NCBI GenBank assembly: GCA_964354795.1
Contig: CAYHBB010000021.1
Coordinates: forward strand, 1 to 57,247
Reading direction: 5' to 3'
From: an uncultured Planctomycetales bacterium
Lineage (GTDB): Bacteria > Omnitrophota > Gorgyraeia > Gygaellales > Profunditerraquicolaceae
DNA: 57,247 bases
Under the pieces are notes generated by a model. It made no database searches, had not been told where the DNA came from, and saw only the letters and a list, made by a program, of their open reading frames with translations. How positions within the stretch are numbered: the stretch's first letter is position 1; each line of letters opens with the position of its first letter. The translations under genes were made by a program, and so were the position numbers. Shown here one piece after another: positions 33,417-57,247 of this stretch.

Positions 33417-33528
33417 GCCCCTCGCCTAAGCGCTTGTGATTTCCTGTGGGGTGCCTCAGAAAATCACGGCGCAGGCTTCGGGGTAGGCCCCTTCCTTAAT
33501 AGGATAGGAAGGGCCACCCCTGTGGGGT
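33417..33528. repeat. Family-B palindrome followed by a family-A element
   Basis: GCCCC..GCCT..GCGC..GTGATTT/AAATCAC..GCGC AGGC..GGGGT; GGCCCCTTCCT-taataggat-AGGAAGGGCC ACCCC-tgt-GGGGT. Confidence 0.7.
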
Positions 33529-33570
33529 AGTTTACCTACCCGTAATAGAGGGTAAAATAAGGAGGTTCTT

Positions 33571-33771
33571 ATGCATACGGGAACAATCAAGAAATTGGTC
33601 CGCGAAAGAGGTTTTGGTTTTGTCAGTGATACAGACGGCAGAGAGTTGTTCTTTCACCAGTCCGGGCTGATTGACGCCAAGTTTGATGCTTTAAATGAGG
33701 GGCAGACGGTAACTTTTGAGGTTGAGAAATCAGATAAGGGCCCGCGCGCGATTGATGTACGTGTTGCCTAA
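33571..33771 (+). CDS. Cold-shock domain protein (second paralog)
   Basis: RGFGFV, LFFHQS, KGPRA. Confidence 0.92.
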   Translation: MHTGTIKKLVRERGFGFVSDTDGRELFFHQSGLIDAKFDALNEGQTVTFEVEKSDKGPRAIDVRVA

Positions 33772-47784: not shown

Positions 47785-48921
47785 ATGTCCCAAGGCGCTG
47801 GTATTCAGGAGAGAGCCAGGAAGTATTCGCTAAAGAAATATACCCTGGTCCTGCTGGATACCGCAGTTACGCTTGCTCTGCTTTTGGTTTTTTTAGCTAC
47901 AGGTTTATCCCGGGTTCTCGCTGAGGGCTTGGGGTTTATTTTTTCCGGGAGCTATTTCGTAGTTCCTGCATATCTACTCATCGTTTTTCTCGCCTATTAC
48001 CTGATAACTTTCCTCCTTACTTTTTATCAGTCTTATACTCTTGAGCACGAATTTTCTTTGTCCCGGCAAAGCTTTAAGGATTGGCTTCTAGACCAGCTTA
48101 AGTCATGCGTGATTTCTTATATCATCGGCTTGATCCTGATCACGGTTTTTTATTTTATCCTGAACCGGTTTCCCGGGAATTGGTGGCTGGTCATCTGGGT
48201 ATTCTGGATATTTTTCTCAATAGTCATGGCTAAGCTTTTGCCAGTTTTGATCATACCGTTATTTTTCAAATATAAGAAACTTGACGATGAAGCGCTGCGC
48301 CAGAAGATCATCGCGTTAGCGGGCAAGATGAAGGTAAGGCTCCTGGATGTCTTTGAGATAGACTTAAGCAAGAAGTCTTTAAAAGGCAATGCCGCCTTCG
48401 TGGGGGTGGGCAATACCCGTAGGGTGCTTCTGGCGGATACTTTAAAAGATAAATACACGCATGAAGAGATAGAGGTGATTTTGGCGCATGAGTTCGCGCA
48501 TTACCGATTAAAGCATTTATTGAAGCTGATATTGGTTAATTCCGCGGTGACGCTTGTTACGTTTTTTGTAATTTATGCTACCAGCAATTCAGTGCTGTGG
48601 TTGTTTGGCCTGGCATCCTTATCCGAGCTTGCGGCTTTACCATTACTCTTTCTTTATTTTACGGTTTTTGGTGTAATTTTGCAGCCGTTTGGGGCTTTTA
48701 TCAGCCGAGTTTTTGAGCGTAGCGCTGACAGGATGGCCATACAGGTGACCGGTGGCAAAGACGCCTTTATTTCGACCATGGATAAGTTGGGTGATCAGAA
48801 TCTTTCGGACCGCAATCCGCACCCGCTGATAAAATTTTACTTTTTTGACCATCCGTCCATAGATGAGCGTATTAAACTAGCCAGGGACGGTTCTCAAGCT
48901 AATCTAAAAGTGTCCCCCTAA
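47785..48921 (+). CDS. M48 (Ste24/HtpX-like) membrane zinc protease
   Basis: NAAF.G.G..RRVLLADTL, AHEFAH, ERSAD, HPSIDERI. Confidence 0.92.
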   Translation: MSQGAGIQERARKYSLKKYTLVLLDTAVTLALLLVFLATGLSRVLAEGLGFIFSGSYFVVPAYLLIVFLAYYLITFLLTFYQSYTLEHEFSLSRQSFKDWLLDQLKSCVISYIIGLILITVFYFILNRFPGNWWLVIWVFWIFFSIVMAKLLPVLIIPLFFKYKKLDDEALRQKIIALAGKMKVRLLDVFEIDLSKKSLKGNAAFVGVGNTRRVLLADTLKDKYTHEEIEVILAHEFAHYRLKHLLKLILVNSAVTLVTFFVIYATSNSVLWLFGLASLSELAALPLLFLYFTVFGVILQPFGAFISRVFERSADRMAIQVTGGKDAFISTMDKLGDQNLSDRNPHPLIKFYFFDHPSIDERIKLARDGSQANLKVSP

Positions 48922-48958
48922 GAGGGACACTTTTGCTTTGAGTTGAGAACCGTCCCTG
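48882..48958. repeat. Nested REP-like inverted repeat over the M48 gene end
   Basis: Perfect 16-bp IR CAGGGACGGTTCTCAA/TTGAGAACCGTCCCTG enclosing AAAAGTGTCCC/GGGACACTTTT. Confidence 0.85.
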
Positions 48959-48976
48959 TATTGAAAGGATAAGGAC

Positions 48977-55404: not shown

Positions 55405-56123
55405 GCAAGGCGGTTTACAAAAGGATCGTTCTGAAGCTCAGCGGCGAAGCGCTTCAGGGGGCAAAATCCCACGGAATAGACCATTCGGTCTTAGTATCTA
55501 TCTCCCGTCAGATAAAAGAGGTCAGGGATTTAGGCGTGGATGTGGCGGTGGTGTTGGGCGCGGGGAATATCTTCCGTGGCCAGGAGAATACCGCTTCACG
55601 CGGCCTGGATATGGATAGGTCTGTCGCAGACTATATGGGGATGCTTGCGACGATTATCAACGGCCTGGCTTTACAGGATGTTTTGGAGAAGACTGGAGTC
55701 CCTACCAGGGTAATGACCGCTATTGATATGGAGCGTATTGCCGAGCCGTATATCAGGCGTAGGGCCGTGCGGCATCTGGAAAAAGGCAGAGTAGTTATAT
55801 TTGTCGCTGGGACTGGGAATCCGTATTTTACAACCGATACCGCGGCTTCCCTTCGCGCCAAGGAAATCAATGCCGACGTGATTTTGAAAGCTACGAAAGT
55901 GGATGGGGTTTATACCGCCGATCCCGTTAAGGTTAAAAGTGCCAGAAAATTTGAGAAACTAAAATATATCGATGTGCTGAAAAAGGGCTTAAAGGTGATG
56001 GACGCTACTGCCATCAGCCTGTGCATGGATAATAACCTGCCGATAGTGGTTTTTAATCTGACTAAGATCGGAAATATCAAGCGCGTAGTCATGGGTGAAA
56101 GAATAGGGACTGTAGTTTCATAA
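55401..56123 (+). CDS. pyrH: UMP kinase
   Basis: [32 protein letters not shown]. Confidence 0.98.
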
Positions 56124-56140
56124 ATTTGCAGCTTTCTGCG

Positions 56141-56182
56141 CACCCCCAAACTTAATGGATAGTTTGGGGTGAGCTGGTGCTC
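56141..56182 (+). repeat. Family-A element before frr RBS
   Basis: CACCCCCAAACT-taatggat-AGTTTGGGGTG then GAGC-tggt-GCTC. Confidence 0.7.
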
Positions 56183-56194
56183 AAGGAGGTAGTT

Positions 56195-56755
56195 ATGACC
56201 ACAAAAGAGATTCTGCATAGTACCGAAGAGAAGATGAAAAAATGTTTTGAGTCGGTGACTCGCGAGTTTGCGGAAGTGCGCACCGGCAGGGCCAGCCCGA
56301 TCATTGTGGAAGGCCTGCATATAGATTATTATGGAACACCTACGTTATTAAAGCAGTTGGCGTCCATTTCCGTGCCTGACGCTCATTTGATCGTGATCCA
56401 GCCGTGGGATATTACAGCTATAGTGGAAATTGAGAAGGCCATACTTAGATCCAATTTGGGAATTACTCCTTCCAACGATGGCAAGGTGGTGCGTTTATCC
56501 GTGCCGCAGTTATCCAAGGAGAGGCGTGAGGAGCTGGCCAAGGTCATTCACAAGATGGCTGAGGATGGAAGAGTGTCGCTACGTACCATAAGACGAGATG
56601 CTAAAGAGCATGTAGAGAAGTTGGAAAAAGACAAGGTGATCTCTGAGGACGATAGATTTCGCGCGATCGAGGATATGCAGAAGATCGTGGATAAATATAT
56701 CGCTAAGATTGATGAGCTTCTGAAGAGCAAAGAGAAAGAAGTTCTGCAGGTTTAA
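56195..56755 (+). CDS. frr: Ribosome recycling factor
   Basis: RTGRAS, YYG.PT, IQPWD, PSNDG, ERREEL, ISEDD. Confidence 0.97.
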   Translation: MTTKEILHSTEEKMKKCFESVTREFAEVRTGRASPIIVEGLHIDYYGTPTLLKQLASISVPDAHLIVIQPWDITAIVEIEKAILRSNLGITPSNDGKVVRLSVPQLSKERREELAKVIHKMAEDGRVSLRTIRRDAKEHVEKLEKDKVISEDDRFRAIEDMQKIVDKYIAKIDELLKSKEKEVLQV

Positions 56756-56757
56756 GG

Positions 56758-56992
56758 GAAGTAAAATTGGGCCCCTATTCCCCATAACGTAGTCGCAGGG
56801 GAATGGGGTAGTGAAGTAAATTCAGATCCCTAGTCTCTATAACGTAGTCGCAGGAGACTGAGGCAGTGAAGTTAAATTAGGGCCTCTAGCACTCCTCGAG
56901 TAAAACTTAGAGTGCAGAGGCAGGCGAGTAAAATTCGGGCTTCTAGTCTCCATAACGTATTCGCAGGAGACTGAGGCATTGAAGTAAATCTA
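56758..56992 (+). repeat. Tandem array of four ~56-bp hairpin units in phase with tRNA-Lys
   Basis: Units start 56758, 56813, 56868, 56925 (and 56981 running into the tRNA): GAAGTAAA.T..GGGCCTCTAG-stem-loop-GAGGCA. Confidence 0.85.
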
Positions 56993-57065
56993 GGGCCTCT
57001 AGCTCATCCGGTAGAGCAGCGGCTTTTTAAGCCGCGTGTGCCGAGTTCGAGTCTCGGGAGGCTCA
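56993..57065 (+). tRNA. tRNA-Lys (UUU)
   Basis: Acceptor GGGCCTC/GAGGCTC, D-arm GCTC/GAGC, anticodon stem GCGGC-ttTTTaa-GCCGC, T-loop TTCGAGT; CCA not encoded. Confidence 0.95.
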
Positions 57066-57068
57066 TAA

Positions 57069-57179
57069 AATTTCTTGCTTTGCGAAGGCAAAGCAAGAAA
57101 TTCATGCCGCAGCCTGCACCAAAAATATCGAAGAACCCCTCTGGGGGCGAAGAGATCTTTGGTGCGTTTAGGCAAGGCA
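57069..57179. repeat. Perfect 15-bp hairpin plus minus-strand family-B palindrome between the tRNAs
   Basis: AATTTCTTGCTTTGC-gaag-GCAAAGCAAGAAATT; TGCC..GCCTGCACCAAA..TTTGGTGC..AGGC..GGCA. Confidence 0.7.
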
Positions 57180-57205
57180 CAAACAAGCGTAAGAGGAAAC
57201 TATCC

Positions 57206-57247
57206 GGGCGGATGGCGGAACTGGCATACGCGATAGCCTTAGGAGCT
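57206..57247 (+). tRNA. tRNA-Leu (UAG), truncated by window end
   Basis: GGGCGGA TGGCGGAACTGGCATACGCG, anticodon arm ATAGC-ctTAGga-GCT. Confidence 0.88.

Follow-up and report, generated by a model that had tools for sequence, protein, structure and literature searches.

Hairpins matched to the following tRNA stand in tandem before a tRNA-Lys gene in Omnitrophota

Why does the gap between a ribosome recycling factor gene and a tRNA-Lys(UUU) gene hold four short repeats in a row, built on the first bases of that tRNA? The locus lies near the end of contig CAYHBB010000021.1 (C21) of assembly GCA_964354795.1. “The window” refers to the whole of this contig, 57,247 nucleotides (nt); the assembly, referred to as the source genome (G000), comprises 1.69 Mb in 41 contigs. 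The four units repeat, in tandem, what may be called a “tRNA-matched leader hairpin.” Such hairpins form a class of palindromic repeats in tRNA 5′ leaders that occurs throughout Omnitrophota, with an outer stem built from the 5′ end of the tRNA that follows. The reading that we favor, with a probability of about one half, is that they are palindromic repeats of DNA modelled on the start of the tRNA; slippage would amplify them, and they would be transcribed as part of the leader and cut away by RNase P.

What would such repeats mean? Few loci are as conserved or as heavily transcribed as tRNA genes, and here an uncultivated phylum tolerates or uses fast-changing hairpins directly before them, each repeat tailored to its tRNA and starting precisely at the base of the RNase P cut. 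If the hairpins are selfish DNA, they would represent a new “safe site” strategy, insertion where RNA processing erases the element, and would also point to a mechanism that copies the end of its target in both orientations. If they are functional, they would represent a new class of tRNA leader element. There is also a practical consequence, since arrays of this kind break metagenome assemblies at tRNA loci: C21 ends 180 nt past the array, and public contigs fragment inside it. Full-text literature searches, covering listings and the openings of abstracts, found no account of tRNA-matched leader hairpins.

Architecture and folding of the array

What does the array consist of? Beginning 2 nt past the frr stop codon, four head-to-tail units of 55–58 nt (n = 4) span the gap to tRNA-Lys(UUU), the sole gene of its kind among the 40 tRNA genes of the assembly. 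The initial annotation, made from the sequence alone, had described four tandem units here, and its description of them proved correct throughout; their boundaries are those in Table 1. All four share the orientation of the tRNA, and no open reading frame lies between the copies, which are spaced 55–57 nt apart. The order within a unit is a leader (GAAGTAAA..), the first 10–11 nt of the tRNA, a stem-loop and (A/T)GAGGCA; in U1, GCCCC...GGGGT stands instead. U2–U4 have the reported GAGGCA ending, and U1 ends in GGGGTA. The outer helix is maintained in U1, because its GCCCC 5′ side pairs with GGGGT and both sides differ from the tRNA-type GCCTC/GAGGC.

The interior of the units is as first described: U1, U2 and U4 have the loop ATAACGTA(G/T)TCGCA in common, on stems that co-vary (ATTCCCC/GGGGAAT in U1, AGTCTC(C/T)/GGAGACT in U2 and U4), and U3 carries another insert (GCACTC/GAGTGC). 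“tRNA-like minihelix,” the term used in that annotation, is loosely apt. However, no unit scores as a tRNA in Rfam at E values up to 10, and the 5–6 nt of the 3′ arm are complementary to tRNA positions 3–8, not 1–7. The suggestion that the 5′ end of the tRNA was the site of repeated insertions or duplications is supported, in that each unit directly duplicates the leader along with the first 10–11 nt of the tRNA. Tandem Repeats Finder calls a period of 55, and a repeat search returns three in-register copies (spacing 55 and 113 nt, identity 70–85%), with U4 and U2 85% identical across 73 nt. Upstream of the tRNA and in register, U3 and U4 share 11 and 9 of its first 10–11 nt. The 10-mer alone is not rare across the window (six matches with at most one mismatch, against 3.5 expected), and its three + strand matches cluster in register. 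The loop motif is restricted to the array, which holds all three of its matches in the genome (at most one mismatch).

U1, U3 and U4 are short imperfect palindromes that are predicted to form hairpins of 12 bp, each preceded by an AU-rich leader of 11–14 nt. The predicted folds have one bulge each, with 5+7 bp in U1 (−20.8 kcal/mol, z −2.8), 6+6 bp in U3 (−21.9 kcal/mol, z −4.2) and 5+7 bp including one U·G in U4 (−17.9 kcal/mol, z −3.75); U2 has only a degenerate fold (−11.4 kcal/mol, z −0.9). In U1, U3 and U4, the first two bases, G1 and G2, remain outside the helix, and the tails read AGU, AGG and AUU. The minimum-free-energy structure of the whole array pairs arms across different units and is therefore little informative.

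Table 1. Features at the frr–tRNA end of the window
Feature	Position	Strand	Description
frr (ribosome recycling factor)	56177..56755	+	Open reading frame; Pfam RRF 209.8 bits; stop codon 56753-56755
Unit 1 (U1)	56758..56812	+	Leader copy GAAGTAAAATT, GGGCCCCTA, hairpin ATTCCCC/loop/GGGGAAT, GGGGTAGT
Unit 2 (U2)	56813..56867	+	Core as in U1/U4; tRNA-like 5′ arm decayed (AGATCCCTAG)
Unit 3 (U3)	56868..56925	+	tRNA positions 1-11 copied exactly (GGGCCTCTAGC); differing core GCACTC..GAGTGC, AGAGGC
Unit 4 (U4)	56926..56980	+	GGGCTTCTAG, hairpin AGTCTCC/loop/GGAGACT, GAGGCATT
Proximal AU-rich leader GAAGTAAATCTA, 12 nt	56981..56992	+	Abuts tRNA base +1
tRNA-Lys(UUU), intact	56993..57065	+	ARAGORN; Rfam RF00005 59.5 bits
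Trailer hairpin, perfect 15-bp palindrome	57069..57102	.	100% complementary; begins 3 nt past the tRNA
tRNA-Leu(UAG), first 42 nt; contig end cuts the gene	57206..57247	+	95-98% matches to tRNA-Leu(UAG) of relatives; ARAGORN on the relatives' loci

Spread across tRNA genes and genomes

Is the array peculiar to one tRNA gene? For each of the 40 tRNAs of the source genome, the first bases were sought in its own 200 nt upstream, with 948 pairings of a tRNA with the upstream region of an unrelated tRNA as controls. A copy of at least 7 nt precedes 12 of the 40 tRNAs (2.6% of control pairs), one of at least 8 nt precedes eight (0.2%), and one of at least 10 nt precedes five, compared to 0 of the 948 controls. 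For other regions, the figures were 3 and 1 of 40 in the tRNA's own downstream sequence, and 4 and 0 in the reverse-complemented upstream sequence. Reading the flanks by eye, we found one or two hairpins before the tRNAs for Lys(CUU), Phe and Pro(CGG), before four Arg and two Ala tRNAs, and before one Met tRNA. In these hairpins, the 5′ arm is the tRNA's own first 7–15 nt, the 3′ arm is complementary to it, and a linker of the type GAAG(T/A)AAA follows; the linker motif GAAGTA[AG]A[AT] is enriched at tRNAs, with 11 of its 86 genome matches lying at most 300 nt upstream of a same-strand tRNA. Given the prefix statistic and the flank readings, the Lys array exemplifies a pattern seen across the genome. 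The initial annotation had named dispersed REP-like repeats with no tRNA association elsewhere, together with a chance-level match to the tRNA 5′ end, as the finding that would speak against it; the units are undispersed, and the search for similar hairpins at other tRNAs that it had called for found them before many. Some units retain 18–26 nt of their tRNA, the one upstream of tRNA-Ser-UGA among them.

How stable is the array among relatives? Of 20 loci of relatives, 15 preserve the order frr–tRNA-Lys(UUU)–tRNA-Leu(UAG)–tRNA-Gly(GCC). Units are present at the frr–tRNA-Lys locus in 5 of the 19 readable genomes, which are metagenome-assembled genomes with broken tRNA loci: four in the source genome and one each in G001, G018, G007 and G035. 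The unit of G001, a member of the same genus, is homologous to U3 and shows a compensatory change from GCACTC/GAGTGC to GCACCC/GGGTGC; in G035, tRNA and unit both read GGGCCAC. The sister species G002, the closest genome (frr 88% identical), has no unit at this locus. Its tRNA-Lys begins 13 nt past the frr stop codon, with a leader that matches that of U1. The contrast between these relatives also agrees with the initial proposal of repeated insertion or duplication.

The same comparison can be made at other tRNAs. Units at Pro(CGG) and Phe are present in the source genome and absent in G002, and at Pro(CGG) a promoter-like TTGCAA-16-TATACT is conserved in both, making a pair of filled and empty sites. 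Units at Lys(CUU), Arg and Ala are common to both genomes, with differing unit numbers and compensatory changes. Thus, unit turnover is fast. Copies of at least 7 nt of the tRNA's own start precede 7 of 39 tRNAs examined in G002 (control 3.1%), 3 of 32 examined in G007 (of 43 Rfam matches; control 4.5%) and 3 of 27 examined in G035 (of 33 Rfam matches; control 4.5%). Arrays occur elsewhere too: four units at Lys-UUU in G470, two at Arg-CCU in G012 and, in G007 (contig C1 ~87300-87640, locus L057), at least three tandem 41-nt units in register before tRNA-Ala(CGC). Each of the last begins with the first 8 nt of that tRNA, which makes this a second such array, in another genus. Two units precede tRNA-Gly(CCC) in G035 (L081), each joining 18–21 nt of a tRNA-Gly 5′ end to CCCCGCACC; these resemble tRNAs stripped of all that lies between D arm and 3′ acceptor strand.

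Public sequencing runs provide a further view of the array. Words of the window are shared by 24 runs, the best DNA run holding 0.49 of them and one RNA run 0.04. No contig of the four runs aligned to the window spans the array; contigs end or change inside it, with a loose end at 56821, a joint 56889>56957 with 10 other letters, and another loose end that reads a U1-like core after GGGCCTCTA. These irregularities within the array are no more than a hint of variants. The RNA-run contig covers tRNA-Lys alone and has a different leader, and hence comes from a relative.

Does the pattern extend beyond close relatives? A one-genome-per-species scan for two in-register copies of the tRNA-Lys 5′ end returned 21 loci, of which 15 are labelled Omnitrophota, two are labelled “Planctomycetales” and also carry a module-type unit, and the remaining four are labelled Parcubacteria, Actinomycetota, Prevotellaceae (a simple repeat) and Omnitrophota. 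Most of the loci have in common the architecture [tRNA 1-11]-TC(A)-TCC...GGA-TT(T)C-GCTA-[complement of 4-7], and the Pro(CGG) and Phe units of the source genome have the same core. Written as a strict pattern, it has 13 matches in 12 of 401 genomes of the phylum, 10 of them 12–30 nt before a tRNA, and the reversed control has none. A similar event outside Omnitrophota is seen at L091 (labelled Parcubacteria), where a copy of the intact tRNA's first ~24 nt stands upstream with a 19–20-nt perfect palindrome inserted at 11/12.

A covariance model of the module, R1, was built from 14 copies and has the form NNNNNNN-TAGC-TC-TCC..GGA-TTC-GCTA-NNNN. At E ≤ 0.01, it matches 49 of 151 genomes from the Omnitrophota family to which the source genome belongs, and in several the matches form tandem pairs or quadruplets. 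With same-record copies and two partial matches left out, 51 matches were examined, and 43 precede a same-strand tRNA. Comparing these 43 with the tRNA's first 11 nt, all 11 agree in 35 cases, 10 in five and nine in three. The tRNAs concerned are of eight types: Met, Lys(UUU), Lys(CUU), Phe, Thr(CGU), Arg(CCU), Pro(CGG) and Pro(GGG). Among the other eight matches, four have behind them what is visibly the beginning of a tRNA-like sequence, though ARAGORN made no call there, and in the last four other hairpins (ATCACTTAGC...GCTAAGTGAT or ATAACTTACG...CGTAAGTTAT) enclose the same core. Non-tRNA hairpins with a TC-TCCGCC..GGCGGA-TTC core are found at L120 and L121 (G070, G126), L148 (G454) and L150 (G430); read by eye, the neighboring strand at L120 and L121 encodes the end of a Gly-Gly-Met-rich protein.

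The stems of the module covary. Across 47 distinct R1 rows, 90.8% of 666 cells pair and 13 of 15 pairs change on both sides, figures flattered by a model-fitted alignment and by the relatedness of the rows; none of 500 shuffles reaches these values, and slid controls give 26–48%. Near-identical cores precede different tRNAs in different genera, and several of the Phe and Thr copies have a poor outer helix. Rfam matched no family at five loci with the canonical module and, on 55500-57247 at E ≤ 10, only the tRNA, the other rows being palindrome artefacts (E ≥ 1.3).

The window units do not belong to this module in the strict sense. R1 has two full-length matches in the source genome, both in tRNA leaders (Pro(CGG) and Phe), and none in 56758-56992 at E ≤ 1 or at the Lys locus (L001) at E ≤ 0.01. 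The window units have the identity of the 5′ arm and the leader position of the module. The module's core has two helices around a TC/TTC internal loop; the window units lack that loop, and their tRNA copy joins the core at position 10–11. The Lys array is thus a local sub-type distinct from the R1 module. A metagenome scan for the loop motif ATAACGTANTCGCAGG, covering 19 of 64 parts of the collection, gave 118 loci, all single matches, none of the 118 with tRNA-like context and one in an unrelated hairpin; single matches without such context are at chance level. A scan of viral contigs for the canonical module gave five loci, none forming the module's hairpin or adjoining a tRNA.

How the units may have arisen

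How might such units come about? On the reading that we favor, a hairpin cassette would become linked to two copies of the tRNA 5′ end, one direct and one inverted, through templated synthesis or a template switch acting on DNA. Direct repeats of ~22 nt (leader plus tRNA 5′ end) would then permit gain or clean deletion of units by replication slippage or unequal recombination, which would explain why there are four units in the source genome and none in its sister species. With no promoter of its own before the tRNA, the array would be transcribed together with frr and the tRNA, and RNase P cleavage at the genuine +1, possibly following a first cut within the AU-rich linker, would discard it. 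We propose that the array persists because the sole tRNA-Lys(UUU) gene is left intact, in which case its presence would be close to neutral.

There is evidence in support of several of these steps. Mismatches in the R1 stems comprise 16 G·U, 15 A·C and 46 other non-Watson-Crick cells; selected RNA stems normally show far more G·U, and the parity of G·U and A·C therefore makes the complementarity look templated at the DNA level and then subject to random decay. The recurrence of closely similar cores at different tRNAs in different genera points the same way, as does the presence of the module within hairpins away from tRNAs. Quasi-palindrome correction, an intramolecular template switching during replication, would be a process of this kind, in that it yields a Watson-Crick second arm without selection at the RNA level, as the equal counts of G·U and A·C would have it. 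However, it leaves unexplained the direct copy of the tRNA 5′ end, its boundary at +1 and the spread of the core to many tRNAs. Co-transcription is likely because nothing on the + strand of 56000-57247 resembles a promoter or terminator and the linkers between unit and tRNA (3–22 nt) are too short for a promoter. Processing factors are encoded: the genome has an RNase P RNA (207 bits) and an RNase E/G gene, and the linker consensus (A/G)(A/G)ATT resembles the preference of RNase E.

Several observations weigh against an origin at the DNA level. The most important is where the tRNA copy begins. Across 30 loci with a single unit, the identity of the unit to its tRNA is 0.90–1.00 at positions +1 to +13, compared to 0.53 at −1, 0.70 at −2 and 0.50 at −3, and further upstream it is at the level of cross-locus controls. 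Unit and tRNA diverge at points that range from position 7 to 18, and the copy starts sharply at +1 whatever the position of this junction. A constant start with a junction that varies from 7 to 18 rules out target duplication of fixed length. Moreover, blind duplication of DNA would be blind to the mature 5′ end, so the sharp boundary favors an RNA-aware origin or function; it is the strongest argument for one, and a DNA-only account leaves it unexplained. Positions 1–3 are mostly not Watson-Crick paired, yet they are identical to the tRNA. An unpaired TC/TTC internal loop is kept in 45 of 47 and 43–46 of 47 distinct copies, and the same AU-rich type of leader precedes units and tRNAs; both could reflect selection rather than recent copying. 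The parity of G·U and A·C, for its part, is a comparison of small counts from a model-fitted alignment. Finally, the enzyme or event behind the first unit is hypothetical, and transcription of the units and their removal by RNase P are steps that we infer.

A different origin can be conceived. Whichever tRNA it encounters, a cassette could copy it inward from +1, the mature 5′ end, and add the reverse complement; one way would be for template jumping to occur where a processed tRNA ends. It is rather doubtful that the hairpins were made by or for such an RNA-aware process, or that they are kept as a minihelix cut by RNase P or as a cis “external guide” that controls tRNA maturation. If this were true, they would represent a new tRNA-specific, self-tailoring genetic element or leader regulator found across the phylum. 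The genome's one reverse transcriptase (486 aa, C24:3994-5454, L276:995-2455) best matches PADLOC RT_UG26 (134 bits) and weakly a group II intron reverse transcriptase (105 bits, cut-off 300); its neighbors have no defence-family match, and nothing ties it to the units.

Are the units functional RNAs in their own right? Each could be a cis-acting element of the leader: a hairpin-type substrate of RNase P, a decoy released as a small minihelix, a sequesterer of the antisense stretch against the tRNA 5′ strand that tunes maturation, or a device that sets the 3′ end of the frr mRNA. We regard this as possible, though less likely than the DNA reading. RNase P-processed small RNAs or tRNA decoys were also the second alternative in the initial annotation. 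The 12-bp helices of U1, U3 and U4 have the length of the stacked acceptor and T arm, and in a genome with RNase P RNA they follow the arrangement of RNase P hairpin substrates, minihelices and the t-elements of plant mitochondria: an AU-rich single-stranded leader and then a helix of ~12 bp starting with the 5′ bases of the tRNA. t-elements mark mRNA ends in plant mitochondria, and the array likewise stands directly past an mRNA stop codon. In addition, a common AU-rich leader precedes each unit and the tRNA, all units have one orientation within the probably transcribed leader, and there are compensatory changes between species, both in the U3-type unit (source genome and G001) and in the Lys-CUU unit (source genome and G002). 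What argues against function is the patchiness among close relatives (5 of 19 orthologous loci; four units here against none in the sister species), along with the decay of U2, the poor outer helix of several Phe and Thr copies and the lack of a G·U excess. Unlike RNase P minihelix substrates, the units have no 3′ RCCA-like tail, no T-loop and no pairing of the first two bases, and their cleavage is putative. Three features keep the functional reading in contention: the +1 boundary, the helix length of 12 bp and the loop conserved in 45 of 47 distinct copies.

Three other explanations fit worse than either DNA repeats or functional RNA. It is unlikely that the units are repetitive extragenic palindromic (REP)-like elements mobilized by REP-associated tyrosine transposases (RAYTs), Y1-type enzymes that would recognize the (G)TAG box of tRNA genes. 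The genome does have two RAYT-like genes (NF047646, 79.5 and 56.1 bits; Pfam Y1_Tnp). Moreover, like the REPs and bacterial interspersed mosaic elements (BIMEs) of proteobacteria, the units are short imperfect intergenic palindromes that are clustered, variable in number, quick to change between strains and probably part of longer transcripts, and the module is also found away from tRNAs. However, both RAYT-like genes are flanked by a different repeat family, GGGACGGTTCT inverted repeats with 36 genome matches. REPs are dispersed in many intergenic copies, whereas the window units are confined to tRNA leaders: the unit cores are found only at tRNAs (TGGCGGATTCGCT 2/2, Lys loop 3/3), and R1 has just two full-length matches in the genome. 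BIMEs alternate in orientation; the four units and all arrays elsewhere run head-to-tail in the tRNA's orientation, with an outer stem copied from the adjoining tRNA 5′ end from +1. Nor is the module associated with the enzyme, since Y1_Tnp is found in 39–40 of 49 R1-positive and 85–86 of 102 R1-negative genomes, and G287 (92% complete) has six R1 matches and no Y1_Tnp match.

Slightly less likely still is descent from decayed tandem tRNA duplicates that lost their anticodon and T arms and kept both acceptor strands. The 18–26 nt of tRNA retained by some units, such as Ser-UGA of the source genome and the Gly units of G035 (18–21 nt), would suit this history, as would the 3′-acceptor-like CCCCGCACC of those Gly units, a Leu fragment in G035 and the GAGGC of U2–U4, which matches 5 of 7 nt of the tRNA's 3′ acceptor strand. 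Yet tandem duplication should have brought some of the leader along, and identity stops at +1 in the 30 single-unit loci; the 3′ arm forms a continuous helix with positions 3/4–11 and not 1–7; one core module precedes eight tRNA types; and neither ARAGORN nor Rfam RF00005 (E up to 10) scores any unit as a tRNA. A tRNA-associated repeat of another kind is the rtT region of the E. coli tyrT operon, reportedly made of repeated 178-bp units that each contain a 3′-terminal segment of tRNA-Tyr. The Lys array resembles it in having tandem, probably co-transcribed units in register with the tRNA, each with a terminal piece of it. It differs in being a mirror image, upstream and with the 5′ end, in its 55-nt period, in having hairpins whose second arm is complementary to the tRNA piece, and in occurring at many tRNAs across a phylum. 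Very improbable, lastly, is that the units are scars of site-specific integration, left as att-site duplications by tRNA-targeting integrases. Integration at tRNA genes is common, and the array does duplicate a segment of a tRNA, but it is the 5′ and not the 3′ part, the copies lie 55 nt apart with no open reading frame, mobile-element gene or recombinase gene between them, the array starts 2 nt past the frr stop codon, and the same arrangement recurs at many tRNAs.

Two further ideas about the array were discarded. As a CRISPR-like array, it would have three “spacers” identical in sequence and a “repeat” consisting of the tRNA leader and 5′ end; no search for cas genes was made. A promoter or terminator role for the units finds no consensus site on the + strand.

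Neighboring sequences

What else lies around the array and around other tRNAs of the source genome? The trailer hairpin at 57069-57102 gives weak, spurious microRNA matches in Rfam, and AAATTT-flanked hairpins that resemble it follow many tRNAs. Next to it, 57099-57186 is a dispersed repeat with an internal 14-nt inverted repeat (57116-57129/57152-57165). Copies with 75–89% identity are found on contigs C16, C24, C25, C15, C36, C14, C22 and C4 and in G002, often just past tRNAs. The GGGACGGTTCT REP-like family usually occurs as inverted pairs and flanks both RAYT-like genes; it is found at C40:21831-22400 and C17:147-961, and one pair lies at 48884-48966 of the window.

The tRNA-Leu(UAG) at the end of the window has a counterpart at the end of C22 (C22:44063-44144) that differs by one base and has different upstream sequence, so the ends of C21 and C22 are not simply joined. 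The discontinuity is likely an assembly break caused by strain variants or repeats. Partial tRNAs also occur downstream of intact ones. Copies of tRNA 3′ ends follow tRNA-Gly(GCC), Glu(CUC), Met and Pro(GGG). On C4 (~33490-33640), tRNA-Glu(UUC) is followed by a 5′-truncated second tRNA-Glu that begins near position 20 and carries an insert of ~60 nt in its anticodon loop.

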